50,811 nucleotides of DNA, taken from a virus. Lineage: Duplodnaviria; Caudoviricetes. The stretch spans positions 1-50,811 of the IMG/VR virus record IMGVR_UViG_3300037485_001666. One strand, written 5' to 3'. The translations under genes were made by a program, and so were the position numbers. Shown one piece after another: positions 12,051 to 45,843 of the stretch. Position 1 is the stretch's first letter; each line of letters opens with the position of its first letter. The notes under the pieces are model-generated. The model had not been told where the DNA came from. It searched no databases and was given only the letters and a program-made list of their open reading frames with translations.

Positions 12051-12173
12051 TTAACGCCGTCCTATTTCACGGGCGGCCCACCTATTCCCCCCTAATATGT
12101 GTTGACGTTTCCCCCCGAAAATGCGAAAATATCACGCGCCATCGTTGAATGGCGCACACATGAAAGGAGCTAT

Positions 12174-13082
12174 ATGTGGCAGTTTGATTTAGACGTTCCG
12201 ATAGGATGGTGGCCCGACGATAGGAAACCGATGGAGGACGAGGAGTATCATCGAACGAAGAGATGGTCGTCGTCCATCTTCAAGAAGCATTTGATTGAGC
12301 ACCCGATCCGAGCAATTCAGGAATTGAACAAGACCGAAGAGGACAGGGAGGACGACGAAAAGAAGAAGGCTTTGCGGACGGGCAAGATCTTCCACATGCT
12401 TCTGCTGGAGCCTGAGAAGTTCGATCAACTCGCAACAGTCGCCCCCAAGCTCGATCGTCGCAAGACCGAGGACAAGGCTAAGTGGGCCGCATTCCAATCC
12501 AGCATTCCCCCCGGTGGATTCTTGCTCGACCAGGAAGAGCTTGAGCAGTTCAAGGCAATGAGAGCCGCCTGCGATTCACAACCGTTCTGGCATCCCTCGG
12601 TCAAAGCCAATTTCGGCTACGTCTACGAGGTGCCCGGTTTCGCAATGTACAACGGAAACCTGCCTCTCAAGATCAAACCCGATGTCAGATCGACCGCCTG
12701 TCCGTTGATGCTTGATCTGAAGTCATGTGACGACGTGCTCGACTTCCCGAGTGGGATCGATAACCACAACTACATGGTGCAGGCCGCATACTATTGCATC
12801 GTGGCTGAACTCATTGATGGGTCGCCTCATTTCGATTGGCGCTGGTTGGCGGTGTCGAAACGTGCGCCGTTCGAGGCGGTCGAATGGAGAGCTCCAATCT
12901 CGGGTGACTGTGGCCTCATCGCCTGGAAGCATTTCCTGCGGATGGAGATGGACGAGCTTTCGAAACGGATCGCTGACAAGGACTTCCCGAAGTTCCCCGC
13001 AGTTCTGGAATATGAACCAAAACCGTACATGAACCCCGAACGTCAAATCACTGGAGGATTCCGCCCATGGCAAACGAAGTGA
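12174..13082 (+). CDS. RecE/exonuclease VIII-like PD-(D/E)XK nuclease (DUF3799-like)
   Basis: EEYH..SSS, GKIFHMLLLEPEKF, KIKPD..DLKS, YMVQAAYY motifs; AAAGGAG SD; adjacent to a Bet-like gene. Confidence 0.88.
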   Translation: MWQFDLDVPIGWWPDDRKPMEDEEYHRTKRWSSSIFKKHLIEHPIRAIQELNKTEEDREDDEKKKALRTGKIFHMLLLEPEKFDQLATVAPKLDRRKTEDKAKWAAFQSSIPPGGFLLDQEELEQFKAMRAACDSQPFWHPSVKANFGYVYEVPGFAMYNGNLPLKIKPDVRSTACPLMLDLKSCDDVLDFPSGIDNHNYMVQAAYYCIVAELIDGSPHFDWRWLAVSKRAPFEAVEWRAPISGDCGLIAWKHFLRMEMDELSKRIADKDFPKFPAVLEYEPKPYMNPERQITGGFRPWQTK

Positions 13083-14338
13083 CCCCATCGACCGAGGTCT
13101 CGACTTTGGTTGATTCCCTGCTCCCAGATGCGAACGGACTTATCTTTGGCTTCAAAAAGGAGGTGGTCGAAATCTTCTGGCTCACCAATGCGGCTGACGC
13201 AGTGACCCCAGCAGAGCGCGTCTACTTCTTGAGCGTGTGCCAGTCGATGGCTCTCGACCCTCGTCGAGGTCACATCTTTTTCACCAAGCGCTGGGACTCG
13301 AAACGGAACTGTCACCGGCCCGCAATCATCACGGCCGTGGCCGGCCTGCGAACGATCGCCGAACGGTCCCGCGAGTACGTCGGGTGCGTCAAGAAAGAGT
13401 GGTGCGGCAAGGATGGAGTTTGGAAGGACGTCTGGCTTTCTGACGAACTGCCGGTCGCGGCCAGGGCCTGGGTTGCTCGACGTGGAACCGATCATTTGAT
13501 TCAAGCGGTCGTCCTGATGAAGCACCTCATGGATCCGAAGTCGCCGACGTGGCAAAAGATGCCGGAACACATGCTCGGCAAATGTGCTGAGGCCGCGGCG
13601 CTTCGTGCAGCCTATCCTGGGGAAGTGCAGGGCATCGAAACATTCGAGGAAGCGAACGAGAATCTGATCGACGTGACGCCCCCCCGCGAACGTATCCCGG
13701 AAGGCTTCGAACGCCCCGCCCTCACCGTTCCCCCCCCTTCCCCGTTGCGGGATCCGATCGACGTTCCCCCGACACCCCCTGCCCCGCCCCCGCCCCCGCA
13801 GGAACGCCCCCCAACGCCCCCCCCTAACGTTCCCCCCGCAGGGAAACAGACACCCCCTGCGGCCCCGCAAGGGGCGCAAATGTCGCCACCCCCGTTGAAC
13901 TCCGGATCTCCTGAGGTTGGTGCTTGCTTGCAGGGAACGTCCAAACCCGCAAGTCCAAAGTCGGACACCAAAGCGAATCCCGCCACCGTGTCTGAGAAAG
14001 AACATTTCTCGAAAGCGCCTGGCCGCAAGCCGATGCCGTGGGACGAGTGCGAGTTCGCGTCCATGTATCGCTGGGACGATTCAGTGGTCTTCGTCAAGAA
14101 CATTGAATCCCACTACACTTTCATGTTCGACTGCGCGGCTGAGTTTGGTGTTCCGTTCAATCCAGGAAACAAGCCATTTCTGACGCAGGTCTATAACGCT
14201 TGCGTGAAGATGCCACTGCGCAATCTTCCCGAGTTCGTGTGGACTCAAATCTTCCGATGGAAGAATCCCACACATGCGGGTCCAGTTCCTCCGATGGCTC
14301 ATGGTGAAAAGGTTCCAGATACCGAAGTGCCGTTCTAG
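13067..14338 (+). CDS. bet: Bet/RecT-family single-strand annealing recombinase with Pro-rich linker
   Basis: FLSVCQSMALDP..GHIFFTKRWDS, GLRTIAERS, WQKMPEHMLGKCAEAAALRAAYP match lambda Bet-like proteins. Confidence 0.88.
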   Translation: MANEVTPSTEVSTLVDSLLPDANGLIFGFKKEVVEIFWLTNAADAVTPAERVYFLSVCQSMALDPRRGHIFFTKRWDSKRNCHRPAIITAVAGLRTIAERSREYVGCVKKEWCGKDGVWKDVWLSDELPVAARAWVARRGTDHLIQAVVLMKHLMDPKSPTWQKMPEHMLGKCAEAAALRAAYPGEVQGIETFEEANENLIDVTPPRERIPEGFERPALTVPPPSPLRDPIDVPPTPPAPPPPPQERPPTPPPNVPPAGKQTPPAAPQGAQMSPPPLNSGSPEVGACLQGTSKPASPKSDTKANPATVSEKEHFSKAPGRKPMPWDECEFASMYRWDDSVVFVKNIESHYTFMFDCAAEFGVPFNPGNKPFLTQVYNACVKMPLRNLPEFVWTQIFRWKNPTHAGPVPPMAHGEKVPDTEVPF

Positions 14339-14423
14339 TTCGGCGCTCCTTAGGCTACGCTTTATTCTGAGCGTAGTCGTTCCCCCACCTGCATATCTCG
14401 CCAAAGAAAAACGTAAAGAAAAA

Positions 14424-14452
14424 TTGACGGAACGTCAAACATTCTGTAAATT
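14424..14452 (+). promoter_or_regulatory. Sigma70-like promoter with a palindrome over the -35
   Basis: TTGACG-17 bp-TAAATT with an A-rich upstream tract; TTGACG-GAA-CGTCAA inverted repeat at 14424-14438. Confidence 0.65.
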
Positions 14453-14502
14453 GTATGTTCCCCCCCGCAATTCCGCGTGGTGGATTTGGTTAGGAGTTCC
14501 CA

Positions 14503-15516
14503 TTGGCGCACGAGATAACGGAGCATGATTCAATGTTCAGCGTTGGCGAGACACCGTGGCACGGTTTAGGACACGTGCTCGAATGCCCGCCGTCGATTGA
14601 CGAAGCTCTCCAGTTGACAGGATTGGATTGGGAGGTCGATTTACGACCACTGTATTTGGAAGATGGACGGAAGGTCACACACAACGCTGTGTGTCGAACG
14701 GATCGAAACGAAGTGCTTGGTGTGGTTGGGCCGAACTACAAGCCCCTGCAAAACCGAGAAGCGTTCGGTGTGTTCCAACCGTTCGTGGAGCAGAAGATTC
14801 TCGCGCTGGAAACGGGTGGATCGTTGCGCGCTGGTCGCAGGGTTTGGCTTCTCGGAAGGTTCCTTGGCCTCGACCCGCAGGAGGTCGTTGCTGGTGACGA
14901 GGTGCGGCCCTATTTGCTCCTCAGCACAGGACACGATGGATTGGTTTGTGTTCGGTACGGACTGACGCCAATTCGGGTCGTGTGCAACAACACCCTCCAG
15001 GCTGCTCACGCCAATGGAAAAGAGTCGGGCCTTCTTCGCGTTCTTCACACAGAAAACGTCGTCGAGTCGCTCGGTGACGTTTCCCAGATTGTTCTTGAGC
15101 AACACAAGTCGTTCGACATTATGATGGAGTCATTTCGACTTCTCGCGAAACGCCAGATCGTTTCATCGGCACAGTTGAAACGGTACATCAAGGAAGTGTT
15201 TCGGAAGGCTGAGGACGAGGACGTTGAAGAGGCTGAGGACACGTTAGGCACAGCGCTCAATGCGATCACAGGCACCATCGTAAAGCCAGAAAGCACAGCC
15301 AGAGAGGACGAGATTCTCGCCCTGTTCGAACATGGCCGGGGAAGTCACATCGAAGCCACGCGAGGCACATGGTGGGCCGCTTACAACGCAATCAACGAGT
15401 GGGTTCTTTATTCCCGTGGCCGTTCTCAAGAGTCACGGTTCGAACAAGCCCTCTGGGGGGCGGGGCGTTCCATCGACGCCAAGGCCCTGCAAATCGCTCT
15501 CAAAATGGCTGCGTGA
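14503..15516 (+). CDS. DUF932-family protein
   Basis: MAHEI...MFSVGETPWHGLG, LDWEV, LETGGSLRAGRRVW, TPIRVVCNNTL, GTWWAAYNAINEW; TAGGAG SD with TTG start. Confidence 0.9.
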   Translation: MAHEITEHDSMFSVGETPWHGLGHVLECPPSIDEALQLTGLDWEVDLRPLYLEDGRKVTHNAVCRTDRNEVLGVVGPNYKPLQNREAFGVFQPFVEQKILALETGGSLRAGRRVWLLGRFLGLDPQEVVAGDEVRPYLLLSTGHDGLVCVRYGLTPIRVVCNNTLQAAHANGKESGLLRVLHTENVVESLGDVSQIVLEQHKSFDIMMESFRLLAKRQIVSSAQLKRYIKEVFRKAEDEDVEEAEDTLGTALNAITGTIVKPESTAREDEILALFEHGRGSHIEATRGTWWAAYNAINEWVLYSRGRSQESRFEQALWGAGRSIDAKALQIALKMAA

Positions 15517-15584
15517 TGGGCACAGGTGTATCGGGGGGAAGGTTCCCCCCCGGTTCCTTTCCCCCCTTAGATTCGAGGTGAAAC

Positions 15585-16328
15585 ATGACAGAAGCTCCAC
15601 AGGTGATCACATTCAATTGCACAGAGAAACTCAAGGGAATCATCAAAGGCGTTGAGCAGGCCAATTCTCAAGAGCAGTTCCGCTACTTCCTGGAAGAAGT
15701 CAGGGACGTCATTCATGTTGTAGAGAACTTTATCAGGATATACAAGAGAGATGAATATGCGCGCCAAGCACAGTTTCTCGTAGACAAAGCAATCAGTGCC
15801 GATATGAGAGAGAGAGGTCGTGAAGTGACGTGTTTCGGTTGTCGAGCAGCGCACTGTTGTAGCATCCACGTTGCGGTTTCTGACCTAGAAGTCGAGACGA
15901 TGTTCGACCGATTGTTTCCGATCGGATTGACTCATTCGCTGTTCAAGGCAACTTATGGACGAGAAGCATATGAGAGACTGAAACGACAAGCCGCCGCTTT
16001 GAATGCTCTCGACAAAGAGGTCAACTATTCGACCGAGTATGGCCTTGTTCTTTCCAAGGACGATAGACGCTGTGTGTTCCTCGGAGACAACAACTTGTGC
16101 ATGGTCTATTCCCAACGTCCCCTGCTGTGTCGGCTTCATTTCGTTGCTGACAAGCCAGCCAATTGCGAGTGGGATGGAGTTACGGAAAAGCCACTCAGAA
16201 TCTGGGCTTCGTATCGTGGCGAAGCGTCTTTCATCGCCTTCACGAACGTCCGAGGAAACAATGAAGGCGTGCCGTTGTCAGTCGCAGTGTGGAAGTTTCT
16301 CCAAGGCTGCAAGGAGAGATACATATGA
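15585..16328 (+). CDS. YkgJ-family cysteine-cluster (zinc/iron-chelating) protein
   Basis: CFGCRAAHCC and CVFLGDNNLCMVYSQRPLLCR motifs. Confidence 0.8.
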   Translation: MTEAPQVITFNCTEKLKGIIKGVEQANSQEQFRYFLEEVRDVIHVVENFIRIYKRDEYARQAQFLVDKAISADMRERGREVTCFGCRAAHCCSIHVAVSDLEVETMFDRLFPIGLTHSLFKATYGREAYERLKRQAAALNALDKEVNYSTEYGLVLSKDDRRCVFLGDNNLCMVYSQRPLLCRLHFVADKPANCEWDGVTEKPLRIWASYRGEASFIAFTNVRGNNEGVPLSVAVWKFLQGCKERYI

Positions 16329-16909
16329 CTATGCTACTCATAGAGATTGATGATATAGCTGGAATAAAGCAACCGAAAAGCACTCGTAAGGTTCTCGGAA
16401 AGGACCCCGTCCTGTACGCAGCAGCCGCCATAGCTCGTCTCAATAAGTGCGCCGTGTGGTGGCCCGATGGTGAGCATAATTCATTCCCTCATTCAGTCGT
16501 TCTCAAAAGACGGACGAGTATTTCGAGTATCGGAGGTGAGGTCAAGATTGGATTCCGAATAGTTGAATGTGAGTGCACAAGCAGGTATGGTCTAGGCAAA
16601 TGTCCAGTTCATCAGGTTCCCCCCATGGTCTGGGATTCGCTTTCGGTCAAGGGATATAAGAGAAAAAGGCTATGGGAAGTCTGGTGTCCGTTATGCGAAA
16701 AGGAGAATCTAGTTCATGGAACGAGCGTCAGAGTTTGCAAATCAACCCGTGGAGAAGCCGCTAAGACGTGGAACTTCGTCATTGAATTTGGATGGCTTGC
16801 TAAACGAGCCAGAGAAGTCGCTGTCGAGAAAGCGCGCCGTCGAGAGAGACCGGTGGAGACGACGGAAGTACAAGTTCCCAGTGTGTGCGATATGCGGGAA
16901 GAGCATTGA
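16325..16909 (+). CDS. Hypothetical Cys-containing protein
   Basis: ATGA-coupled, GGAGAG SD; CxC/CPxC motifs. The 3' part overlaps the next ORF. Confidence 0.5.
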   Translation: MTMLLIEIDDIAGIKQPKSTRKVLGKDPVLYAAAAIARLNKCAVWWPDGEHNSFPHSVVLKRRTSISSIGGEVKIGFRIVECECTSRYGLGKCPVHQVPPMVWDSLSVKGYKRKRLWEVWCPLCEKENLVHGTSVRVCKSTRGEAAKTWNFVIEFGWLAKRAREVAVEKARRRERPVETTEVQVPSVCDMREEH

Positions 16910-17027
16910 GAAGCTGAACTCATGGAAGTATTGTTCCTCTCGATGCCTACAGAGAGGACAGGCGAAGATGTGTTTAGCTCGATACTACAAGAGGAAAGAG
17001 TTAGCTAATGGAAAAACCGGTGTCTGA
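16782..17027 (+). CDS. Small Zn-ribbon protein
   Basis: CAICGK...YCSSRC motif within ORF 16716..17027; start uncertain. Confidence 0.45.
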   Translation: MNLDGLLNEPEKSLSRKRAVERDRWRRRKYKFPVCAICGKSIEKLNSWKYCSSRCLQRGQAKMCLARYYKRKELANGKTGV

Positions 17028-17265
17028 GTTTGACCAACTTGAGTTGCTTTTCACGGAAGCCGCCTGGGCCGCTCACGAGCTTTTCAAGATCGCTGGTCAT
17101 GAGAACGTCACGCTACTGGTGGACGCTTTCCGAGCCGGAATAGCGTATGAGCTTCGCCTTCACTATGGCACCTTCGAAGAAGCCTCAACTCATGTTGACG
17201 TATCCCGCCAAACCATAAGCAACTGGACACGGATGTGGAGACAACGGGAAAAGAAATCCCTTTGA
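17008..17265 (+). CDS. Small helix-turn-helix protein
   Basis: TFEEASTHVDVSRQTISNW resembles an HTH motif. Confidence 0.6.
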   Translation: MEKPVSEFDQLELLFTEAAWAAHELFKIAGHENVTLLVDAFRAGIAYELRLHYGTFEEASTHVDVSRQTISNWTRMWRQREKKSL

Positions 17266-17403
17266 CTTCCCTGTCCTTGTCCTGTCTGCAAAAAATGCAA
17301 CAAAAAGATGCAAAGCGAAACATGGGGTTGGGGTTTGCGCCCCCCCCCTTTGCTGTGTTAATGTTTTCCTGCAATCATTTTCAGCGCACGAAATCGTGAA
17401 TCT

Positions 17404-17727
17404 TTGGGGGAAACAGTGTCACACAAGAACAATAGTGATGTTAATTCGGGGGAAGCGGGGTATCGTTTCGACAAAATGAAGTGCGACCCGGCCATTATTG
17501 AGTTGGGTAAGTTCATCAAAAAGAACGTTTCCGAGGAAGCCTTCGCAAGCCTCGTCATTGATGGGCTGGGACAGGCGCTCTATGTGAACTTCTCATTCCT
17601 GAAGTTCGGTTGTGCCTCACGACAGACAATCGTGGATTGGTTTGGATTCGACGAGGCGGTCACTCTCGCACTTAGCCTTGGCTACATCGCGGAGGAAGAC
17701 GGTCAGTTCAAACTAAATTTCGCGTAG
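17404..17727 (+). CDS. Hypothetical protein
   Basis: 107 aa ORF upstream of the replication initiator; start uncertain. Confidence 0.45.
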   Translation: MGETVSHKNNSDVNSGEAGYRFDKMKCDPAIIELGKFIKKNVSEEAFASLVIDGLGQALYVNFSFLKFGCASRQTIVDWFGFDEAVTLALSLGYIAEEDGQFKLNFA

Positions 17728-17737
17728 TGGGTGACTC

Positions 17738-18778
17738 ATGACAAAGTTGAAGAAGGGAAACTTCACTATGATAGATAATGACATGGAGTTTATCTTAGGT
17801 GATCCTGAATTCAGAATCTTTTTCCATTTGGTTAGAATGACGCGCTACGGGGAGAAGGTATTTGACACCAGCGCTCATATCTTAGCAAAAAGGTTTCTTG
17901 TAAATAAGAGGACATTTCTAAAAGCGTTATCAACGCTAATTGATAAAGAACTAATTTCAGTTTCAACTTCAAGTTCTGGAACTAGAGTTGAAATCCTTAA
18001 GTGCTCAATGATCGAGTTTCAAGATGACGGGGGGGGTTGTGCACCCAGTACACAACGAAACAGGGGGGGGGTTGTGCACCCAGTACACAACGAAACGGGG
18101 GGGGTTGTGCACCCAGTACACAAGGGGCTGTGCACCCAGTGCACAACGGTTGTGCACCCAGTGCACAACGACGACATTCTAGATCGAAAAAAAGAAGATC
18201 AAAGAAAGATCAAAGAACAATACAAAGAAGATCTCAAACCATCGAATTTTTCCCCGGACGTTCCCTCGAGCATTCCCCCCCCCCTCGCTCCCGCTTGCGC
18301 GGTCGCACTTTTGGAGGTCGTCCCAATCGAGAGTTCGAAGAAGCGACCAAAGGGACCAACGGATGGCTCCCTGGTCTTCCAGGCATATGTCGAGGCTATG
18401 GAAAAGAGATGGAACGTGACCCCGCCGAGAAGCGCAGCTGTTTCTTCAATGGCGAAGTCACTGATTGCCAGGGTAGGGATTGACAATGCCATTGCACTGG
18501 CAAAGTATTTTCCAACAAGGCTCGATCCAGCTTACATCAAATGCGGACATCCATTCGAACAATTACTTAAGCATCACATGGTTCTTCTGGGTGAAATCAG
18601 CACCGGGGTAAAACGAACGTCGGGAATTATTCGGAGATTGTCAGAACAGGAGGCAACACTTCAGTCAATCGACATGCTTGAAAACGGATTGGATTTTCTA
18701 CCAATAGGTCCAAGTACGCAAGAAAGGAAGAAAATAGCCGCAACAGCGACCATCACATCACGATGCGGCACGAAGTAA
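17738..18778 (+). CDS. Phage replication initiator (lambda O-like organisation)
   Basis: N-terminal GNFTMIDN plus winged-helix-like region; internal iteron array followed by an A-rich tract. Confidence 0.82.
   Translation: MTKLKKGNFTMIDNDMEFILGDPEFRIFFHLVRMTRYGEKVFDTSAHILAKRFLVNKRTFLKALSTLIDKELISVSTSSSGTRVEILKCSMIEFQDDGGGCAPSTQRNRGGVVHPVHNETGGVVHPVHKGLCTQCTTVVHPVHNDDILDRKKEDQRKIKEQYKEDLKPSNFSPDVPSSIPPPLAPACAVALLEVVPIESSKKRPKGPTDGSLVFQAYVEAMEKRWNVTPPRSAAVSSMAKSLIARVGIDNAIALAKYFPTRLDPAYIKCGHPFEQLLKHHMVLLGEISTGVKRTSGIIRRLSEQEATLQSIDMLENGLDFLPIGPSTQERKKIAATATITSRCGTK
18037..18235. repeat. Replication origin: five 19-bp palindromic iterons plus A-rich tract
   Basis: (T/C)TGTGCAC-CCA-GT(A/G)CACAA at 18037, 18072, 18105, 18128 and 18150; then an A-rich region with repeated AGATC. 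Confidence 0.88.
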
Positions 18779-18790
18779 CCCCCAAAGGAT

Positions 18791-19411
18791 ATGAGGGATG
18801 AAACCTATATGACGAAAGAAGAGTTTGAGCAAGTCATTTCTATTTTATCGGAACTTTCGAGAGTTTCTTTGATGGATAGAGCGAAGCAATTCTATTGGGC
18901 CCACATTCGGCACATACCATATGACGAGATTAAACCAGCGATAAACCTGTTCTGTTCTCGTGGCAAAATGCCCACAGTCGAAGAGCTCCTTCGCGAATGC
19001 GGACGCACCGGAGTTCAAGACGCTGAAGAACGTCTCATGGAAGAGGCTACACCAGAGTTTCTGAAAAAGTCGCCAAAGTCATCAATTGACAACGCTTTAG
19101 GTCACCTTACGGTTTGCATTGATGCTAATGACGTTCAAGATAATGAAGAAGCAGAAGTAACTATATCAAACAAAATAGCAGAGCTATGTGCTAAAGGATG
19201 GATTGTAATTGATATGAGCGAACTATTCATGAATACATTCCACTCAGAGGCATTGAATTTAGGATGGAGAGTAACCAAGAAGCGCTTCTATCGCAACGTC
19301 AACTTCTTCCGATCAAGCATCGACGGAAAGAATGTCGAAGTCGATTCTCAGTACGGAAACTTTCAACGTTGGTTCAAGCGAGGCATCTTGCAGAAAACAA
19401 CGGAGGGATAA
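18791..19411 (+). CDS. Putative helicase loader/inhibitor (G39P-like N-terminus)
   Basis: Follows the initiator; MTKEEFEQVISIL...YWAHIRHIPYD...MPTVEEL pattern. Confidence 0.5.
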   Translation: MRDETYMTKEEFEQVISILSELSRVSLMDRAKQFYWAHIRHIPYDEIKPAINLFCSRGKMPTVEELLRECGRTGVQDAEERLMEEATPEFLKKSPKSSIDNALGHLTVCIDANDVQDNEEAEVTISNKIAELCAKGWIVIDMSELFMNTFHSEALNLGWRVTKKRFYRNVNFFRSSIDGKNVEVDSQYGNFQRWFKRGILQKTTEG

Positions 19412-19432
19412 TCGTGAACATGACCCGATTGC

Positions 19433-19458
19433 TTTTCCCCCGTATACGTTCCCCTCAT
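19433..19458. repeat. C-rich dispersed repeat TTTTCCCCCG(T)ATACGTTCCCCTCAT
   Basis: Matches 31836-31860 except for a 1-nt indel; related copy at 30156-30175. Confidence 0.85.
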
Positions 19459-19547
19459 TCCCCCCTTTCCCCCACTCCCTTGAGTACGGGAGCGGGGCAG
19501 GGACCAACGTTTCGGGGTATCGTTTCCCCCCCGAATGCACAGGGGGC

Positions 19548-19817
19548 ATGACGGTGGACTTGTCGAAGCTCAATGAGATTGACTGGAATCAAACGCCGAC
19601 GGTCTGCGTGGAGATCACACCGCAGTCAGAACAGCAGGCCGAGTTCCATGCAGCAATGCACATCCGCCAAATCGAGTTCGAGAAAAGCCTCCCGCCTCAC
19701 ATCGTCGTCATTCACAAGACCGAGTACGTCATCGGCGCCAAGCTCAAACTGTTCGTTACAATTTGTCACATCGACCACCCACATAGGAGATCATTATGTC
19801 GCCAATCTGCGCAGTAG
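19548..19817 (+). CDS. Hypothetical protein
   Basis: Start MTVDLSKL after AGGGGG; protein-like composition. Confidence 0.5.
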   Translation: MTVDLSKLNEIDWNQTPTVCVEITPQSEQQAEFHAAMHIRQIEFEKSLPPHIVVIHKTEYVIGAKLKLFVTICHIDHPHRRSLCRQSAQ

Positions 19818-19951
19818 ATACAAAGTCGATCGCTGAGATATTCAAGAGGAAGGTCATCGAAGCAACCTCAACCGAGGAGTACGACCGATTGACTGCTCTC
19901 TTCAAGGAAATCCTCGGACACGCTCAAATCTATCAGGAGCTGACAAAATGA
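19796..19951 (+). CDS. Small hypothetical protein (51 aa, not in ORF track)
   Basis: TAGGAG SD, MSPICAVDTK...QELTK; ATGA-coupled to the next gene. Confidence 0.5.
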   Translation: MSPICAVDTKSIAEIFKRKVIEATSTEEYDRLTALFKEILGHAQIYQELTK

Positions 19952-20271
19952 TGGAAGCTCTCGATGTCATCTGTGGCGGTACCTGGGGTGAGCGATACGG
20001 CGTCTGTCGTCGCTACTGGACGACGAAGATTCCAAACGACACGCCACCCATCGCCAAAATGCAATCCCGCAAGTGGACAGGCATCACGTTCCCATGGAAA
20101 GAGTTCGGGCCAGATTGCACTCACGAAGTACCAGAGGAAAGAATCAAGCCCCGTTGGATACTCTGGTGCGAGAAACTCAAGAACGATTCAAGCCAGGTTT
20201 CAATCATCACGATCCTACTCGACGAGCCCACCTTCATTCGGGACGTAGAAAATATCGTCCACGTTCTCTGA
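19948..20271 (+). CDS. Hypothetical protein
   Basis: CAGGAG SD; 107 aa. Confidence 0.6.
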   Translation: MMEALDVICGGTWGERYGVCRRYWTTKIPNDTPPIAKMQSRKWTGITFPWKEFGPDCTHEVPEERIKPRWILWCEKLKNDSSQVSIITILLDEPTFIRDVENIVHVL

Positions 20272-20285
20272 ATCCAAACCGACGA

Positions 20286-20314
20286 TTGACAACCGCCATT
20301 CGTCGTTGTACTCT
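20286..20314 (+). promoter_or_regulatory. Sigma70-like promoter carrying a conserved 23-bp box
   Basis: TTGACA-17 bp-TACTCT; box shared with 43635-43657 on the minus strand. Confidence 0.7.
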
Positions 20315-20418
20315 GCGGAATGCGAGAATAAAGGATATCTCCAATTTAGCGCTTGACTCCGGAGACGAAAGAACGGGAACGTGAATGACCGAAATCAATT
20401 CAAAAGAGGCGAGATATT

Positions 20419-20640
20419 ATGGTCAGTTTTGATATGCTTGGTCGTATTATCTTGGTTTGGCTATCGGTTGGTCTATTCATCAATCTGTCGGTTTTAATCA
20501 TACGTCCCACAGTCTTCTCCGACTTTCAATGGCACGAGAAGTTCGTCATCCTCGGGATGATCCAAACCGGTTGGTTGTTCCTGGCCGTCTATCTCATTGG
20601 GGATGGTCTCAAGAAACGATCTCCCTCGGATCGGCTTTAA
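20419..20640 (+). CDS. Small two-helix membrane protein
   Basis: 73 aa with two hydrophobic segments. Confidence 0.55.
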   Translation: MVSFDMLGRIILVWLSVGLFINLSVLIIRPTVFSDFQWHEKFVILGMIQTGWLFLAVYLIGDGLKKRSPSDRL

Positions 20641-20642
20641 TT

Positions 20643-20843
20643 ATGGGACGAGTTGTTATTACTCTCATGGACACAGAGGGAACTCTTGACGTTCGTTTGA
20701 GCGCGATAGTTCACAGGGAAGAGCACGATCCGGACACAGAATTACCGTGCGAACATGTCGCTCGGTGGCTTCTTCTTCAGTGCAGGGATGCTCAGGAGAT
20801 GTTCAAACGAAACCAGGAGAACGGCGGCAGTGAACTCAACTGA
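20643..20843 (+). CDS. Hypothetical protein
   Basis: MGRVVITL start in a tightly packed gene run. Confidence 0.5.
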   Translation: MGRVVITLMDTEGTLDVRLSAIVHREEHDPDTELPCEHVARWLLLQCRDAQEMFKRNQENGGSELN

Positions 20844-21120
20844 GGACGACATCGTTGAAAGCGGGGCGTCAGCATTCGATCGTTGCATCTTGCACGAGTT
20901 TGAAGCATTGGACAAGCATCATTTCGGAATGTCCAAGCGTTACAAGTGCAAGCACTGCAAGTCGATTTGCTACTCGTCGTTCGTGGCTGGCTATCATCTC
21001 GGAAGGATTCATCAGGCTAATCAACACGCTATCAAGAAGTTTCAGGAGCATATAGATGCCGGAAGATGCAGAAATAACGCGGCTCACTCTGAGGATAAAT
21101 CACCTACAAGCCAAGCTTGA
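20830..21120 (+). CDS. Hypothetical protein with C2H2-like motif
   Basis: CKHCKS...YHLGRIH; CAGGAG SD before GTG. Confidence 0.5.
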   Translation: MNSTEDDIVESGASAFDRCILHEFEALDKHHFGMSKRYKCKHCKSICYSSFVAGYHLGRIHQANQHAIKKFQEHIDAGRCRNNAAHSEDKSPTSQA

Positions 21121-21316
21121 GCGTGACAACGAACTGTTCGAACGGATATTCGGCAACATGTACGTTGGTTGTGCGGGGTGTCTCATCTCTCATTATCAGC
21201 CGAACGGCAAGTGGGGTTGCGCCTTGCGACCTCCACAGAAGCGTCACTGCAAACCCGCAGGTCAAGGCAGACACGAAGATTGTCCATGGATAGCTCATGT
21301 GAAAGGAAGATTTTGA
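21056..21316 (+). CDS. Hypothetical Cys-rich protein
   Basis: CAGGAG SD; CAGC...C...C...HEDCPW. Confidence 0.55.
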   Translation: MPEDAEITRLTLRINHLQAKLERDNELFERIFGNMYVGCAGCLISHYQPNGKWGCALRPPQKRHCKPAGQGRHEDCPWIAHVKGRF

Positions 21317-21579
21317 TGCACCCTAGTAATAAGATCACCCGTGAGAATCTGAAAGATGTTGTCTACTGGCACAGTCCAAAGCCAGAACAAGTACGAGGAA
21401 TGGAAAGGATAGCCGAGTCATGTGAGATACTCATGCACGCTATTCTGATTTCGTGTCCAGATTGTGCAGACAGAAGCGCAGCTTTGCGATGTGCTCGTGA
21501 GGCAAGGATGTGGGCGAACGCCGCAATCGTTCTTGACCCTGAGCATCACAATCCAATCGACCACACGAGAGGTGTGTGA
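21316..21579 (+). CDS. Acb2/Tad1-like cyclic-nucleotide sponge (anti-defence protein)
   Basis: YWHSPKPEQ...CPDCADRSAALRCAREARMWANAAI matches the family pattern YHxP...CP.SRE.S.A...EA.MWANAAI. Confidence 0.72.
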   Translation: MHPSNKITRENLKDVVYWHSPKPEQVRGMERIAESCEILMHAILISCPDCADRSAALRCAREARMWANAAIVLDPEHHNPIDHTRGV

Positions 21580-21833
21580 TGGAATTAGTCAACACATACA
21601 CCATCACCGTGCAAGAAAAAGTCAACGCGGATGGCTCGGGTCAAACCAATTTCAACATCGTCGTCGAACATCCAAACAATGCAGTGACACGAAGTCGTGT
21701 CCTCACGGAGCTTGCTTTCAAGGAACTCAAGCAACGGTTGGAAGCGTTTTCCGATAGCCACACAAAAGAAATTCCAACACCAGAGAATTTTCCCAAGCCA
21801 CCCGGCACGGATGTAAAGGGGCCAGTCAATTGA
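21576..21833 (+). CDS. Hypothetical protein
   Basis: GAGG SD; overlaps both neighbours. Confidence 0.55.
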   Translation: MMELVNTYTITVQEKVNADGSGQTNFNIVVEHPNNAVTRSRVLTELAFKELKQRLEAFSDSHTKEIPTPENFPKPPGTDVKGPVN

Positions 21834-22228
21834 AAATGCTCTGCCCTCACTGCCTCACACTCATCACTGACAGGCAACGGATGCTCGCATTCTACAACCT
21901 GCTCAAGATGCACGATTGGGACAGGGGGAGAGCATCGCAGGACTGCGGCATTTCCCGACGCCTCGCTACGCAATGGGTAGAGGCACTGCGAAACGAGGGC
22001 GTCCCTGTCCCAAGGACGGTGTTCCTCATTGATGGGCACCTCGATCACCCCTTCGGAAACAAGCGCAGGAATCACGCTTGGGTCCCTGGAGAGATCAAAT
22101 ACCTTACTCAATCGTGGGACAAGATTCCGCTCGACAAGATTCTGTTCGTGCTTGGTAGGCGTGACGCTAAAGTGATCGCTATGGCTGAACGACTAGGATT
22201 GAAAAGGGAGACACATGGAGATAAATGA
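21830..22228 (+). CDS. Putative HTH DNA-binding protein
   Basis: CPHC N-terminus; RASQDCGISRRLATQW HTH-like; WVPGEIKYL...LGRR Myb-like C-terminus. Confidence 0.55.
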   Translation: MKMLCPHCLTLITDRQRMLAFYNLLKMHDWDRGRASQDCGISRRLATQWVEALRNEGVPVPRTVFLIDGHLDHPFGNKRRNHAWVPGEIKYLTQSWDKIPLDKILFVLGRRDAKVIAMAERLGLKRETHGDK

Positions 22229-22421
22229 GCGTCCAAATATCCACCAAGTCATTGCTCAACTTCGGGATGATATAGATTGCGCTGGATATCATATGGCAGA
22301 GGGTAGCCTTCTCGATTGTCATAGTGAGGCAACCAAAGAGTTCGCTCACGGATGTCTCAAAATTCTGATCGGAGTAGCTGCCGTTTTAGTCTTTGCTCTT
22401 GAGGATGCAAATGAAACGTGA
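22215..22421 (+). CDS. Hypothetical protein
   Basis: AAGGGAG SD; 68 aa. Confidence 0.5.
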   Translation: MEINERPNIHQVIAQLRDDIDCAGYHMAEGSLLDCHSEATKEFAHGCLKILIGVAAVLVFALEDANET

Positions 22422-22680
22422 ACGCATGGTGCGTCCGTCCGATCGTCCTCTCTGCGCGACACAACCGATCGGATTGGCGCACCAAATCTCAATGGTGAGC
22501 GGAGGGCTGAGTGCATGGACGGAACCTCACACGTTAGCCCTTTGCTACCACTGTCTCGTTGGGAGCGGCTCGGAGGCTGTGAGACTCCGGGTTGACTCCA
22601 GGTCTCAATGGTGAGCGGCTTGGGTGTATGGCGTGCCCTTCATTCGCCCAAGTTGCCACTGTTCTGAAAGGAACATCTGC

Positions 22681-23157
22681 ATGAGAATCTACAAAGGCCA
22701 GGTCTTCCGAGAAGGACAGCATTTCATCTCAACCATCTCGAAGATAGCTGGTCGAGTTTGGACTGTCGCCAAGGTTCGTTTCACGGACGCCAACGGATGG
22801 CTCTACGTTCGTCCAATCATCGTCATGCAGCGCACCACTGGACAGCTTCTCATGCTCAACTGCATGGGAGCAGAGAAGGTCGTTGTTCCACCTGCGATGG
22901 TCAAAAGAAAACCAACGCCTAAACCACGACCTGGAAGCATCTATCGCCCAAGCTCTGTCTGTGCGTCGCCTCATTGCCTTTGTGTGTTGAGAGTCGTCTC
23001 TCGGGATTTGGTCGAAGTCATCGCCGTCCATTTAGATGAAGACGTTTGGATGAGAGTTGAGAATGCACGAAAGAGGCCGATGTCCATTCATCGTCTTCAC
23101 TGGAGATACAAGCCACACGCTACCGACATCAATCTGATAGGAGACAACCCATGTTGA
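22681..23157 (+). CDS. Hypothetical protein
   Basis: AAAGGA SD before ATG 22681; overlaps the queD start. Confidence 0.55.
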   Translation: MRIYKGQVFREGQHFISTISKIAGRVWTVAKVRFTDANGWLYVRPIIVMQRTTGQLLMLNCMGAEKVVVPPAMVKRKPTPKPRPGSIYRPSSVCASPHCLCVLRVVSRDLVEVIAVHLDEDVWMRVENARKRPMSIHRLHWRYKPHATDINLIGDNPC

Positions 23158-23579
23158 GAGTATCGAAGAAGTTCCATTTCTGTGCTGCCCATCGCCTCAT
23201 TGGACACAAAGGATTGTGCAAGAACCTCCACGGCCATCGCTACGAGTTGCAGGTATTCTGCGAAGCCGACGAGCCAGACGACGTTGGGTGCACTGTCGAT
23301 TTTGGTGAACTCAAAGACACTGTAGGCGAATGGATCGATGCTCATCTTGACCATGCTACAATGGTGTTCGATGAAGATACAGAACTGCTGGAATTCTGTA
23401 TGCGAACTGGCTCAAAGAGATTCTATTTTAGCGCCAACACGACCGTGGAAAACATGATTCAAAAAATCTACGTCAGGATGCAATCTGAATTGCTCAACCA
23501 ACGTTGGCGTCTGGTCGGTATGAAAATGTGGGAAAGTCCGAACAACTGCGTGACCTATACGGGTCCCAAAGGAGAATAA
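23151..23579 (+). CDS. queD: 6-carboxy-5,6,7,8-tetrahydropterin synthase
   Basis: FHFCAAHRL, CKNLHGHRY, VDFGELK, LDH, TTVENM, WESPNN. Confidence 0.95.
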   Translation: MLRVSKKFHFCAAHRLIGHKGLCKNLHGHRYELQVFCEADEPDDVGCTVDFGELKDTVGEWIDAHLDHATMVFDEDTELLEFCMRTGSKRFYFSANTTVENMIQKIYVRMQSELLNQRWRLVGMKMWESPNNCVTYTGPKGE

Positions 23580-23582
23580 GCT

Positions 23583-24901: not shown

Positions 24902-24904
24902 CAC

Positions 24905-30608: not shown

Positions 30609-30612
30609 GCAA

Positions 30613-31794: not shown

Positions 31795-31835
31795 CGTTCC
31801 CCCCCCTCATTCCCCCCGCCCCTCACACCATCACG

Positions 31836-31860: not shown

Positions 31861-32012
31861 CGGTCCCCTCACGAGCGCGTGACGCTCCCCCTAGGGCGAT
31901 TCCAACGACACCCGATTGACACTCCCTGACGTACTGTTTGACATCACACAACAACTCGCTGATCATTGCCGTAGGACATAGTCCTTCCCAAGCATACAAG
32001 GAGATTCACCCG

Positions 32013-42336: not shown

Positions 42337-42607
42337 TCATGCCTGCCTCGGGTATCTCTGGACCGAACATGTGGTTCACGAAGACGACAGAATCGTAGAC
42401 GGGAATCTGTCTGACAAACCATTCAACGATGCCTAGTTGCTTGATCAATTCCTCTGGCCTTTTCTTGGCCGCTTCCATGTTGGCAAGATGCTCACGTTCT
42501 TTTCGCACCATCAAGAGAAGAACCTTTTGATACCAATTACAGGTGTCGTCGTCGTACACCTTTTTCTTGTCGCCTTCGCCTATCGTAATTTCGCAGTTTG
42601 TTTCCAC
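42317..42607 (-). CDS. Hypothetical protein
   Basis: GGAGG upstream of GTG; follows the GT9 gene on the same strand. Confidence 0.55.
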   Translation of the reverse strand: METNCEITIGEGDKKKVYDDDTCNWYQKVLLLMVRKEREHLANMEAAKKRPEELIKQLGIVEWFVRQIPVYDSVVFVNHMFGPEIPEAGMIKHDSE

Positions 42608-43590
42608 GGTCTCTCAGCCTCCATTTTGATTAGTGCGTTGATGCAAGCCTGCGCCACAACCTTTGCGGACTCAGTTCGGGTGGGTGCGTCTCGGAGGCTT
42701 ATTCGCTCCTCAAGAAGCTTGTTCTGCGTGGGATAGTAGTCATCTTTCGCAGGTACAATAGTTGAGCGATAGTCCTGACTGCCATTCCTGTGTGGCATCC
42801 TAAACTCTGGATTGATCAATGATGCAGCATAGACAATGTGACACCTATTGGAACATCCTGCGATGGGCAAGTGTCCCGTCTCCGTCGTCAGAACGACCTC
42901 ACATTCATCGTAGAGTGCGGCCAATTGATGCAGTGAAGTCATGTTGTATAAGCATAAGTCGTGTGGAATGAGGGATGCAGGGTGGAGACCTTTCTTTTCA
43001 TTCACCTCAAGGACGTCTGTATCCGCTCCGATATCTCTTGGACTGATGTCTCGACCCACGAGAACGACAGCAAACCCAGCCTCACGCACCCGCGCAGCAA
43101 TGGACGCGTACCACTCGACTGGCATGGTCCGGCTCGGCCACCCGATGACCGGAGACATTGCGAGAACAGCACGTCGGGTTTTCCCGTCCCTGCGATGACG
43201 GATGGCATTCAACCGCGCCCTAGCGTGAAAAGATTGAGCTTCTGTCCAGAACAGGTCGAGGGACTTGTCCTTGTTCACGAGCATGGCGCGGAATAGGTTT
43301 GCAGAAATGTAGTCAACCGTGTGCGATTGAGGATGAGACACACCGGCAAGAGAGTTCCCAACCATGAAATGACCCCATGGATAGAACATCGTAGCGATCG
43401 GAATATGGTCAGTATTGCACTTATACATGTTGTCTATGTAGGGATTGTTTAGGAACGGCTCCGCGTTCTTGACCCACATGTCAACTATGTATCCCTTTCT
43501 CTTGAGCATTCGAATGATAGGGGTGTGGTACAAAAGGTCGCCGAAACCAATGAACGTTGTCACGATCAAACACTTCTTCGCTTGCTCCAT
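42580..43590 (-). CDS. Glycosyltransferase family 9-like (heptosyltransferase fold)
   Basis: GFGDLLYHTP, FLNNPYID, WPSRT, TSLHQLAAL, TETGHLPIAG; AAGGAG SD. Confidence 0.82.
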   Translation of the reverse strand: MEQAKKCLIVTTFIGFGDLLYHTPIIRMLKRKGYIVDMWVKNAEPFLNNPYIDNMYKCNTDHIPIATMFYPWGHFMVGNSLAGVSHPQSHTVDYISANLFRAMLVNKDKSLDLFWTEAQSFHARARLNAIRHRRDGKTRRAVLAMSPVIGWPSRTMPVEWYASIAARVREAGFAVVLVGRDISPRDIGADTDVLEVNEKKGLHPASLIPHDLCLYNMTSLHQLAALYDECEVVLTTETGHLPIAGCSNRCHIVYAASLINPEFRMPHRNGSQDYRSTIVPAKDDYYPTQNKLLEERISLRDAPTRTESAKVVAQACINALIKMEAERPWKQTAKLR

Positions 43591-43624
43591 TGAATCTCCT
43601 TCGGACTCGAAACGGCTATGATGG

Positions 43625-43662
43625 AGTGTCGCTTGACGAACGGCGGCTGTCAATCGTACCAT
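43625..43662. promoter_or_regulatory. Overlapping divergent sigma70-like promoters
   Basis: Rightward TTGACG-18 bp-TACCAT; leftward TTGACA-17 bp-GACACT. Confidence 0.6.
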
Positions 43663-43680
43663 CAAGAGAAGGAGACATCG

Positions 43681-43959
43681 ATGAAGAAGTACATTTTCGA
43701 CAAGTGCGGGAACGTTCTCTATGACTCAATCCGCGAAGCTGAACGAGATTTCGGAAAGACTTCTGTCTGTATAGCAAAGAGCGATAGCGTCGTTTTTCTG
43801 ACCCACGAGCAAGTCGAAGAGGCGGTTTCGCAGTATATTCGATCTAGGGGACCTACTAATGCCTCGACAAAGCAGAACGTCAGAAATGGGAAAGAAATGG
43901 CGACAACCGAGAAGACCGAAAACTCTAGGCCGTCCAGGCGGAAGACCGACAAAGTATAG
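43681..43959 (+). CDS. Small protein with NUMOD1-like motif
   Basis: AAGGAG SD; YDSIREAERDFG. Confidence 0.5.
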   Translation: MKKYIFDKCGNVLYDSIREAERDFGKTSVCIAKSDSVVFLTHEQVEEAVSQYIRSRGPTNASTKQNVRNGKEMATTEKTENSRPSRRKTDKV

Positions 43960-44392
43960 ACCAATCGACCATTGTCAAGCGCTGTGGGAACACCTCGCCG
44001 CAGGCCACACGATTGAATCCTTCGGGGCAATCATTGGTGTCCATCGGGAGACCGTCTTCGAATGGCTTGCTGTGCATAAGGAGTTCGCTGATGCCCGAGA
44101 GTTCGGTGAGCTTGCGCGCGCCCATCTCACAGAGAAGATTGGACTCAACCAAGCACTGACAGGACGAGGAAACTACTCGACCTGGATCGTCTTTGCGAAC
44201 AAGTACCTGGGTTGGAATCCTCCACAGCAGGGACACGTTCACCAAGGCGGCCTGACTCCCATCGGATTCAACTTCGGTGGCGCCACGACGGAAGAGAAGC
44301 GCGCGCGCCTGGACGAGCTTCTTGCCAAGCGGGAAGGCCGAACGAAGCCCGGGCAGGCCATCGACCTGTCGGTTGAGGAAAAGACCGAATGA
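43859..44392 (+). CDS. Terminase small subunit
   Basis: GRPTKY, IGVHRETVFEW..H.EFADA HTH; directly upstream of the large subunit. Confidence 0.82.
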   Translation: MPRQSRTSEMGKKWRQPRRPKTLGRPGGRPTKYRPIDHCQALWEHLAAGHTIESFGAIIGVHRETVFEWLAVHKEFADAREFGELARAHLTEKIGLNQALTGRGNYSTWIVFANKYLGWNPPQQGHVHQGGLTPIGFNFGGATTEEKRARLDELLAKREGRTKPGQAIDLSVEEKTE

Positions 44393-45843
44393 GCTTGACG
44401 GAGCGCGAACACGCCGAACTTGAGGCTCTGGCCTCCTGGGACGATCAGGTGTTCGACTTTCCGTTGTTCGTTCGTGAGACGTTCCCAAAGATTATGTGGG
44501 GCTGGTTTTACGATCACCTGTGTGAAGTGCTCACCAAATTTCTGTCCGCTACCGTCAGGGGGGAATCACCCCGCCTCATCGTGAACGTTCCCCCACGCCA
44601 CGGAAAAAGCGAAATTTGCACCGTTCGTTTCCCCTTGTGGGCCATGTTGAATCACCCCGGCCTGGAAATTATTGCATGCTCCTACGCCCAATCTTTGGCG
44701 ATTGACTTTTCAAGGAAGGCTCGGGAACTCGTGTTCCACCCTCACATCGAGGGGCTGTGGGGCAACCAATCGAGGGGGGGGAAGTTCGCAGCGGAAAAGT
44801 GGACTCTTGGCAACAAGTCCTCGTACCAAGCGACTTCCGTGCTTGGGTCCATCGTCGGCAAGGGCGCTCACATTTTGCTCATCGATGACCCAATGAAGAA
44901 TCTCCAGGAGGCGGATTCCTCGAACCACAGGGAGCGGATCTATGAGTGGTATGGATCGTCGGCCTACACCCGGCTTTCCCCCGGAGGTGGAGTCATTGTC
45001 ATCATGCAGCGGTGGCATGAGTTTGACCTGACGGGCCAGCTCCTGCGAGCCGAGAAGCTCGACGGTGGCGACAAGTGGGCTCACATTGAATACCAGGCCA
45101 TCGCCGAGAACGACGAACGGTGGCGCAAGAAAGGGGAAGCCCTGCTGCCCAACCGGTTCCCGGTCACCCTCCTCAGGAAGACCGAGAGCAACATGGTCAC
45201 CCGCGTCTGGCGTGCAAACTACATGCAGCGGCCCACTCGCAAGGGCGGCAACATTTTCCAGGCGGCATGGTTCCAACGCTTCGACAGCCTCCCGAAGTTC
45301 CGGGACGACGAGAGCCAGGAATGGATCAGTTCGTGGGACCTTCGCTTCGGAGCAAGCCAGAAGAAGTCGTCCTCTTTTGTCTGCGGTCAAATCTGGCTTC
45401 GGGTCGGTGCCAGAAAGTACCTCGTCGACCAAGCGCGTGGACGTTGGGATTTCTCGCAGACGCTCGACGCTTTCGAAAGCCTGCTGTCCAGGTATCCCCA
45501 ATGCCACACCCATCTCGTGGAGGACAAAGCGAACGGGCCGGCTATGCAAAGCATCCTGCAGGACAAGGTTTCAGGGATCCTCCTGAGAGCCCCCAAAGGC
45601 GACAAGGTGCAGCGTGCGGAAGCGGCCCAGCCGACGACCCGGGCCGGGAACGTCCACATCCCGGACGAGAATTATCATGTGTGGGTGACGACGTGGCTTG
45701 ACGAGGTCACGCGCTTTCCCGGAGCTGAGGACGACGACCAAGTTGACTGCATGAGTCAAGCAATAATCTACATGCTCGAAAATGAAACGTGTCTTGAGGA
45801 AGTGATTTGCATGGACGGATACCATGTGAATGAAGAGGATTGA
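44389..45843 (+). CDS. terL: Terminase large subunit
   Basis: Walker A VPPRHGKS, Walker B LLIDDPMK, IMQRWH, SWD, VEDKANG, DDDQVD nuclease motif. Confidence 0.96.
   Translation: MSLTEREHAELEALASWDDQVFDFPLFVRETFPKIMWGWFYDHLCEVLTKFLSATVRGESPRLIVNVPPRHGKSEICTVRFPLWAMLNHPGLEIIACSYAQSLAIDFSRKARELVFHPHIEGLWGNQSRGGKFAAEKWTLGNKSSYQATSVLGSIVGKGAHILLIDDPMKNLQEADSSNHRERIYEWYGSSAYTRLSPGGGVIVIMQRWHEFDLTGQLLRAEKLDGGDKWAHIEYQAIAENDERWRKKGEALLPNRFPVTLLRKTESNMVTRVWRANYMQRPTRKGGNIFQAAWFQRFDSLPKFRDDESQEWISSWDLRFGASQKKSSSFVCGQIWLRVGARKYLVDQARGRWDFSQTLDAFESLLSRYPQCHTHLVEDKANGPAMQSILQDKVSGILLRAPKGDKVQRAEAAQPTTRAGNVHIPDENYHVWVTTWLDEVTRFPGAEDDDQVDCMSQAIIYMLENETCLEEVICMDGYHVNEED

Follow-up and report, generated by a model that had tools for sequence, protein, structure and literature searches.

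Short repeated words that organise transcription are, to our knowledge, common in phage genomes, and few have been described outside model phages. In lambdoid early operons, blocks of genes are separated by Rho-dependent terminators. The DNA considered here is the viral record IMGVR_UViG_3300037485_001666 (Duplodnaviria; Caudoviricetes), whose whole length of 50,811 bases is called the window below. The element in question is a family of short words, runs of four to nine cytosines most often preceded by TT, that are gathered into islands in the gaps between early genes. The phage lineage is under-sampled, and these intergenic words make up a spacer motif of it that is new and strand-exclusive. 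The preferred reading takes them as punctuation of the transcript, with a polar system of DNA sites as the main alternative.

The rut tracts of Escherichia coli and Salmonella, as set out in the main text of PMC6144790, are C-rich, G-poor, poorly structured and untranslated, lie on the non-template strand after stop codons, and have YC dinucleotides spaced 9-13 nucleotides (nt) apart. Known Rho-dependent terminators have C>G bubbles, defined in that text by a 78-nt measure, that reach ~80 base pairs (bp) and include one or more (YC)N9-13 x4 motifs, and every tested template of the two species terminated with Rho if its bubble exceeded 78 bp or its area 700 (PMC6144790). The islands share the composition, strand, position and YC spacing of these tracts, I7 and I8 are poorly structured as well, and the bubble lengths and areas lie far above the values at which all templates terminated. 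They differ in wording: no consensus word is known for rut tracts, whereas here a TT (often CGTT) prefix and a C4-9 homopolymer recur. The stoperators of Cluster A mycobacteriophages are described in PMC9283540 as numerous asymmetric sites across the phage genome at which repressors halt elongation. Like them, the words are present as many asymmetric intergenic copies co-oriented with transcription. Unlike them, only 6-9 bp are conserved, the homopolymer tail is variable, several copies stand in one spacer, and the words are confined to the early region. A stoperator proper was rejected as their identity: a fixed-length site and a cognate repressor were not found, the C tail being four to nine long and the profile scans giving no repressor or integrase family match.

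The viral record is complete (CheckV 100%), with 52.5% G+C and no end repeats. On a gene map of open reading frames (ORFs) with PHROGs, Pfam and NCBIfam profile matches, the plus strand codes for nearly all genes. Tail genes extend up to ~11.3 kb, the early/middle block runs from ~12 to 32 kb, and the portal, head, terminase and tape-measure genes come after it. Runs of at least five cytosines (C5+, and likewise for other bases and lengths) number 55 in the whole genome against 24 G5+ runs, and there are 28 C6+ runs against nine G6+. Plus- and minus-strand copies number 13 and 0 for CGTTCCCC, 8 and 0 for ACGTTCCCC, 20 and 3 for GTTCCCC, and 27 and 11 for TTCCCCC. Chance expectation was taken from 200 Markov simulations at each of orders 1-4. 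The means for CGTTCCCC were 0.69-3.06, with a maximum of 7. The C6+ runs averaged 5.2 at order 1, 5.6 at order 2 and 25.9 at order 4, the last matching the observed count because the frequency of CCCCC is already built into the model. Non-coding DNA makes up 3317 of the 50811 bases (6.5%) and holds 17 of the 28 C6+ runs (5.13 per kb vs 0.23 per kb in coding DNA) and one of the nine G6+ runs. Spacers bearing C-runs all lie between 12051 and 32012. Outside that interval, C4+ runs are absent from seven of the eight spacers of at least 25 nt, and a single one is present in 3159-3584. The early-region spacers (1,985 nt) contain TTCCCCC 17 times, where 0.41 copies are expected from the rest of the genome, and its reverse complement three times; TTCCCC is found there 21 times against four in reverse.

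A preliminary description of this DNA had reported eleven C-rich patches, mostly on the plus strand. All eleven are present where it placed them, and both the strand bias and the enrichment over a Markov background hold. It took many of the patches to be intergenic or beside promoters, which fits the eight that lie in spacers, three of them next to sigma-70-like sites; the other three are inside ORFs. The motif that it proposed survives in shortened form, with TT before most intergenic runs and the full CGTT before a minority. The homopolymer assembly errors that it named as a possible undoing are unlikely to be the source of the C-runs, because a separate assembly by Logan agrees and because coding C-runs keep their reading frames open. 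Over 12020-32015 the Logan assembly matches with 0 substitutions and 0 gaps at a depth of 42-46, all run lengths being the same. The sole difference is one skipped 35-nt iteron copy, probably a k-mer collapse since its loss would shift the reading frame. The phage was found in one public sequencing run, of DNA, and in no RNA run among those searched. That one run, from which the Logan assembly comes, is probably the source sample and not an independent one, so an assembler artefact is excluded and a bias of sequencing chemistry is not. The C-run feature is thus real and statistically strong, and it is made of mixed parts.

The intergenic set consists of 31 C4+ runs in nine early spacers. TT precedes 21 of the 31, GTT ten and CGTT seven, against backgrounds of 10.7%, 3.4% and 0.9% (P = 6e-14, 4e-8 and 1e-8), and the base 3' of the run is T or G in 29. 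Run length is four to nine, and neighbouring runs start 7-36 nt apart, often 9-14. Two longer repeats are superimposed on the words: D10, 36 nt common to islands I5 and I8 (78% identity), and D17, a 29-nt hairpin-plus-pyrimidine module common to I3 and I7 (83% identity). The predicted folds of I3, I4, I6 and I7 contain G-C hairpins between C-runs and a G-run. Sigma-70-like sites are found inside I1, inside I2 and downstream of I8. A -10-like hexamer stands within 1 nt after the run in three of the 31 cases and at 8, 15, 16, 20, 24 and 24 nt in others. As this distance is not constant, the word is not a sigma-70 promoter element or activator box. TT also precedes 21 of the 77 other, mostly coding, C4+ runs (P = 4e-5), and where a Pro-Pro pair opens with CCC, the codon before it has TT as its last two bases in 8 of 15 cases, vs 6.8% of all codons. 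The only ACGTTCCC copy beside a minus-strand gene, at 43708 and upstream of 42580-43665, has the sense orientation of that gene. The reverse orientation of ACGTTCCC, with 8 copies vs 1.7 expected, was set aside as not significant once 65,536 words are tested. An Rfam scan gave no match for the islands and a hammerhead ribozyme as its sole hit. A full-text literature search with four 8-mers gave only primer-type matches among the matches listed. The 15-mer common to I5 and I8 was found at 37 loci, none of them related, whose C5 runs have no TT prefix.

The eight spacer islands all stand on the plus strand in the sense orientation. I1 (12084-12116) is in the spacer that separates ORF 11499-12050 from the exonuclease ORF (12174-13082, plus strand, ATG at 12174). 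Its two C6 runs, with the prefixes ATT and TTT, stand on either side of the first hexamer in a sigma-70-like site (12102-12130), and a hairpin at 12056-12077 lies upstream of the runs; the fold has a z of -2.6. I2 (14376-14468) follows a hairpin at 14354-14375 with CGTT-C5, a sigma-70-like site (14424-14452) and GTT-C7 at the expected transcript start. The hairpins of I1 and I2 are followed by mixed C/T. I3 (15533-15566) opens 17 nt past the stop of the DUF932 protein (ORF 14533-15516, plus strand, by profile match) with a G6AA/TTC7 hairpin at 15533-15550, after which comes a pyrimidine tract containing a C6 run. A terminator scan flagged this hairpin, which has seven pairs (six G-C) and a tail with 5 T in 8, and I3 looks like an intrinsic terminator on these predicted features. 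I4 (17324-17348), in the spacer after ORF 17008-17265, has a G4TTG4 + C9 hairpin with a T-rich tail; the G/C fold is predicted, yet the terminator scan left it unflagged.

I5 (19433-19535) has five C-runs whose starts are 14, 9, 9 and 57 nt apart. The last of them (C7, 19526-19532) can pair with a G5 at 19542-19546, just before the start of ORF 19548-19817. By codon-usage scoring, the gene after I5 follows the frame of ORF 19332-19817 with a start at ~19548, rather than the longest-ORF pick 19573-19836. I6 (30060-30185) has seven C-runs in a 531-nt divergent control region, with an 11-bp inverted repeat (30082-30092 with 30133-30143) and two copies of ACGTTCCCC starting 13 nt apart; none of 200 shuffles folds as stably (z -3.1). 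A direct repeat of ~16 nt on the plus strand (30044-30056 and 30228-30243) brackets I6 and is a possible operator pair. I7 (31187-31230) has a short GGGAA/TTCCC hairpin at the stop of ORF 30698-31180 and then a pure pyrimidine tract; it is less structured than its shuffles (z +1.75), 196 of 200 of which fold at least as well. I8 (31794-31891) has seven C-runs in a tract that opens one base past the stop of ORF 31534-31794. Its whole spacer is 42% C and 17% G, it is unstructured (z +0.54), and it lies upstream of the sigma-70-like site 31938-31966 that precedes the structural genes. On codon usage, the ORFs overlapping the islands score from -0.03 down to -0.21 per codon, whereas 22 confident genes score +0.05 to +0.27, and the islands are therefore very probably untranslated. 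Among individual scores, the 5' extension of the exonuclease ORF at I1 (12099-12173) has -0.04, the ORFs overlapping I2 have -0.07 and -0.03, and ORF 29976-30317 over I6 has -0.08.

Tentatively, the islands are taken to be strand-specific punctuation at the level of the transcript, in the form of Rho-loading-like tracts, hairpin terminators or attenuators. They would act during or after plus-strand transcription as boundaries of early and middle transcription units, a level that the preliminary description left out; every island is on the sense strand. One sub-type consists of arrays of (A)CGTT/ATT/TTT-C4-9 words. I5, I6 and I8 are such arrays, long tracts rich in C and poor in G that follow stop codons or lie in a leader, and the pure pyrimidine tract of I7 and the single word copies in I1 and I2 are placed with them. 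Rho would load on these untranslated tracts, with YC 9-13 nt apart, and end or attenuate transcription between gene blocks. The other sub-type consists of hairpins of a C-run and a nearby G-run after stop codons (I3, I4 and I7), which could serve as hairpin terminators, and in I5 a C-run may also mask a G-rich ribosome-binding site. The likeness to the lambdoid early operons would lie in where the C-rich tracts fall: I5 follows the replication genes, I6 stands in the leader of the rightward operon, and I8 precedes the structural genes.

The sequence itself shows where the words lie and on which strand, what they are composed of, how specific they are, and that their predicted structure is low. 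The first C-run stands 5-75 nt past the stop codon of the preceding plus-strand gene in seven islands and in the spacer of the ribozyme. The three strongest untranslated bubbles of the genome are those of I8, I6 and I5, with a maximum %C-%G of 47.4, 39.7 and 30.8 and areas of 5685, 10631 and 1631. The bubbles of I8, I6, I5 and I1 span 335, 815, 99 and 156 window starts, and these islands contain 23, 34, 8 and 0 starts of the (YC)N9-13 x4 motif. The combination seen in rut tracts, a C>G bubble of at least ~80 nt with one or more such motifs, is therefore found here, more weakly in I2, I3, I4 and I7. The RNA, very probably untranslated, is predicted to be poorly structured in I7 and I8 and structured in I6 and I1. 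From 11300 to 20500 the terminator scan gave 18 terminator-like sites vs 10.1 in shuffled sequence. That transcription actually ends at the islands, and which factor would end it, we infer from these features.

Several observations weigh against this assignment. I6 has a significantly stable fold and lies in a divergent region that may not be transcribed in the plus-strand sense. I2, I3, I4 and I7 have only moderate bubbles, at the 82.9th to 97.6th percentile. C>G bubbles are common and poorly specific, with 696 of any size on this plus strand; for E. coli, PMC6144790 reports ~2.2 bubbles per kb that reach 80 bp. The need of Rho for YC leaves the TT (21/31) and CGTT (7/31) prefixes unexplained, as it does the TT before the other, mostly coding, runs. 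The Rho criteria are enterobacterial, and the host of this phage may lack Rho. No antiterminator gene was recognised in the PHROGs, Pfam and NCBIfam scans. Should the islands be Rho-loading tracts or hairpin terminators, they would provide a readable map of the temporal gene blocks of the phage, and the rut-like tracts would have the recognisable consensus that prediction of Rho-dependent terminators lacks. The lineage displays an unusually clean, strand-exclusive, homopolymer-based word in its early-gene gaps, beside a hammerhead ribozyme.

The prefix is also where a different explanation begins, since its specificity argues for recognition of the word and not of its composition. The words would then be asymmetric sites of ~6-9 bp (CGTTCCCC or TTCCCC) for a phage or host protein acting as a polar roadblock, repressor or activator; we consider this unlikely, though deserving of serious attention, and if correct the words would be a new polar operator system. 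Their exact multi-copy form, with tandem copies starting 9-14 nt apart, the specific bases on both flanks, the longer modules that link I5 with I8 and I3 with I7, the three islands adjoining sigma-70-like sites and the over-use of TT-C-run words in genes all speak for such sites, as does the stoperator precedent. In another high-GC viral family, the identical 9-mer ACGTTCCCC builds arrays of 9-16 copies in ~400 bp, so proteins that read the word plausibly exist. Against this stand the variable run length, copy spacings of 7-36 nt that are out of helical phase, and the lack of a fixed distance to the -10 hexamer; the 9-mer elsewhere is found in both orientations in one region, whereas here it keeps one orientation across nine spacers. 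The preliminary description had likewise suggested binding sites for a phage protein. The specific prefix and the arrays elsewhere favour that part, and none of the three binders that it named fits. Its ParB-like candidate, ORF 27299-27919, matches the ParB N-terminal domain only, with no helix-turn-helix part detected. Helix-turn-helix proteins are represented in the PHROGs, Pfam and NCBIfam scans by two weak HTH_23 matches. The small terminase gene (43859-44392) is far from every island and is flanked by spacers without C-runs. A ParB-parS centromere was rejected because the word is asymmetric, the ORF has the ParB_N domain only, and a profile scan found no ParA. A functionless origin is improbable in our estimate: homopolymer slippage together with duplication or recombination of spacer modules would generate the runs, and they would be kept on the plus strand since G-runs in messenger RNA are harmful and C-runs are not. 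Heterogeneous run lengths, TT-prefixed C-runs in coding DNA, modules D10 and D17, which could be duplications, and a comparison set without any relative spanning the early region are compatible with such an origin. It accords poorly with the 17-to-1 excess of C6+ over G6+ runs in non-coding DNA, the high specificity of the prefix (P = 6e-14) and the nearly run-free late-gene spacers. A low-abundance relative, present as a low-depth contig in the same sequencing run, keeps 51 of the 55 positions 19445-19499 of I5, with three C-runs of the same length and different flanks. Viral loci are generally depleted in G/C6+ runs, at 0.20-0.52 of a composition-based expectation, and a run-rich genome therefore needs an explanation.

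The guanine runs of the minus strand suggest yet another function. It is established chemistry that 7-deazaguanine lacks the N7 needed for G-quartets. The window contains FolE, QueD, QueE, QueC and a DpdA-like gene, and the preliminary description had linked the tracts to this modification. By this account, which is very improbable, the minus-strand G-runs form G-quadruplexes, and because 7-deazaguanine lacks N7, modification makes the tracts harmless or turns them into a switch between modified and new DNA. Canonical G-quadruplex (G4) motifs, defined as four G3+ runs with loops of 1-7, are found at six places on the minus strand (13775, 13807, 19451, 26980, 31190 and 31799) and nowhere on the plus strand, vs simulated means of 0.2-0.4 and a maximum of 2 in 40 simulations at each of two Markov orders. 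These places have the four or more runs of at least three C (G on the template) with loops of 1-7 that are typical of G-quadruplex and i-motif sequences, whereas most islands have one or two runs, and the TT/CGTT prefix is neither needed nor explained by quadruplexes. By these motifs, a capacity to form quadruplexes is predicted for I5, I7 and I8, which are three of the nine C-run-bearing early spacers, and not for the other six; two further motifs are in the translated RecT linker, and the one at 26980 is outside any island. The modification half of the proposal finds no support in comparisons. The biosynthesis and DpdA-like genes are present, yet in 62 DpdA-like viral loci G/C6+ runs stand at 0.20 of composition-based expectation, where 27 control loci give 0.52 and the window gives 1.51, and G4-motif density is 0.28 per 10 kb (0.16 in 26 GC-matched loci) vs 1.18 here. 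These loci are at least 8 kb each, ~20 kb around the gene and 1.03 Mb in total, and their homologues are distant (23-35% identity), so the comparison weakens the 7-deazaguanine idea and does no more. Known DpdA enzymes can be motif-limited according to PMC10164549, and the modification in this phage may likewise be limited in extent and sequence context. The word 'quadruplex' was not found in any of the listed papers on 7-deazaguanine, DpdA and phage. The 7-deazaguanine link would be the most interesting outcome, and on the sequence comparisons made it is not supported. It is extremely doubtful that modification state is coupled to expression, whether by template G-runs that would fold on unmodified new DNA and block early transcription but stay unfolded once 7-deazaguanine is substituted, or by (A)CGTT-Cn words that would load the overlapping ParB-fold/DpdA-like pair. 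Transcript punctuation remains the preferred reading of the islands.

The arrays of the 9-mer in other viruses were found by scanning viral sequences for a two-copy ACGTTCCCC pattern, which gave at least 119 stretches. Among the matches listed, these belong mostly to one high-GC family of IMG/VR and to unrelated tandem repeats, and none is a relative of the window. In that large family, L013 (5992-6385), L039 (376-710), L018 (5974-6279) and similar loci have 9-16 copies in both orientations with tandem triplets, flanking an alternating purine-pyrimidine core immediately 3' of a primase ORF (Toprim/DUF7146), and are likely to be iterons of an origin. Iteron-like arrays of the 9-mer are present in L068 and L036 as well. 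The arrays of L013, L018, L039, L060, L065, L068 and L036 have in common with the window the identical ACGTTCCCC and start-to-start spacings of 9, 12 and 13 nt. They differ in gathering 9-16 copies in both orientations in one ~400-bp region, which adjoins a Toprim primase or falls within an initiator-like ORF, whereas the window has one orientation over nine spacers and different iterons of its own. With tblastn at E up to 0.05, nothing is confidently shared beyond the ParB_N domain, at 28 loci, and a single distant terminase match, the rest being short and marginal. The shared domain counts as one event because it is confined to one high-GC family. A search of 50,697 deposited phage records gave no match to the L013 array region.

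The three coding patches are ordinary, the terminase patch included, and are simply proline codons, which all 30 of the 30 C5+ runs inside plus-strand ORFs overlap. The patch at 13678-13895 is a proline-rich linker of the RecT-like protein (ORF 13067-14338, plus strand, by profile match), with 11 C5+ runs, all in proline codons. The linker contains CGTTCCCC three times, two of them as ACGTTCCCC, and its reading frame is open throughout. For the C-terminal 140 residues of this ORF (13916-14335), a search of 1.84 billion representative proteins gave no relative. Separate translation of this C-terminal part could begin at an in-frame ATG (13880) that follows a G-rich stretch. The patch at 18250-18290 codes for a run of prolines (C10) within ORF 17738-18778 (plus strand), which is initiator-like, and the patch at 44558-44635 is the Walker-A segment of the large terminase (44389-45843, plus strand, by profile match) and no island. 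The closest terminase relative, on the 11.9-kb viral contig L009 (72% identity), encodes the same Walker-A residues without a C-run, and the terminase patch is therefore a coincidence.

The initiator-like ORF contains five origin-type iterons at 18029-18176 on the plus strand (repeat D1), three of them ~35-nt copies that each open with G8-9, plus two shorter ones. After them comes an A/T-rich stretch with several GATC sites, which precedes the C10 run, and the whole resembles an origin inside an initiator gene. The C-run words themselves were rejected as replication-origin iterons, being scattered over 20 kb and differing from the repeat at 18029-18176. A hammerhead-II ribozyme (RF02276) is found at 30612-30678 on the plus strand, in the spacer between ORFs 30438-30608 and 30698-31180, at 38.3 bits where the gathering score is 37 (E 2.5e-4 for the window as a whole), and has both core sequences, CUGAUGA and GAAAC. 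PMC3088659 reports type II hammerheads. A hammerhead stem accounts for the C6 run at 30620, which stands outside the TT-C-run word family. The position of the ribozyme suggests self-cleavage of a polycistronic early RNA.

The 7-deazaguanine gene set occupies 23151-29490 on the plus strand and comprises QueD, QueE, FolE, two unassigned ORFs, the ParB_N-only ORF, the DpdA-like ORF and QueC. The ParB_N-only ORF (27299-27919, plus strand) matches profile positions 20-103 of 186 and overlaps the start of the DpdA-like ORF (27837-28850, plus strand). Bacterial DpdA is reported in PMC10164549 to partner with DpdB, a ParB-fold ATPase, and for this reason the ParB_N-only ORF may serve the modification machinery rather than partition; the two ORFs may correspond by analogy to the DpdB/DpdA pair of bacteria. 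PADLOC gave no Dpd match in the window. A search of 5.8 billion clusters at E up to 1e-10 gave only five relatives of the DpdA-like protein.

To judge from sequence searches, the lineage is poorly sampled and has almost no sequenced relatives. The best terminase match in a cultured phage has 38% identity, and the L009 contig found with the large terminase has late genes only and no C5+ runs. Neither the DUF932 protein nor the portal protein has a match among viral contigs, and a terminase alignment gave none in 185,579 species genomes. The DUF932 alignment against metagenome contigs gave matches only at 39-44% identity. A search of the window for tRNA genes found none. Closer relatives are a 35-kb ENA contig (35,195 nt) with the DUF932 protein at 73% and a 13-kb Logan contig (13,322 nt) with the DpdA-like protein at 77%. 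The ORF at 21169-21579 on the plus strand has a Pfam Acb2_Tad1_hairpin match (E 1.9e-8) and is a candidate anti-defence nucleotide sponge.

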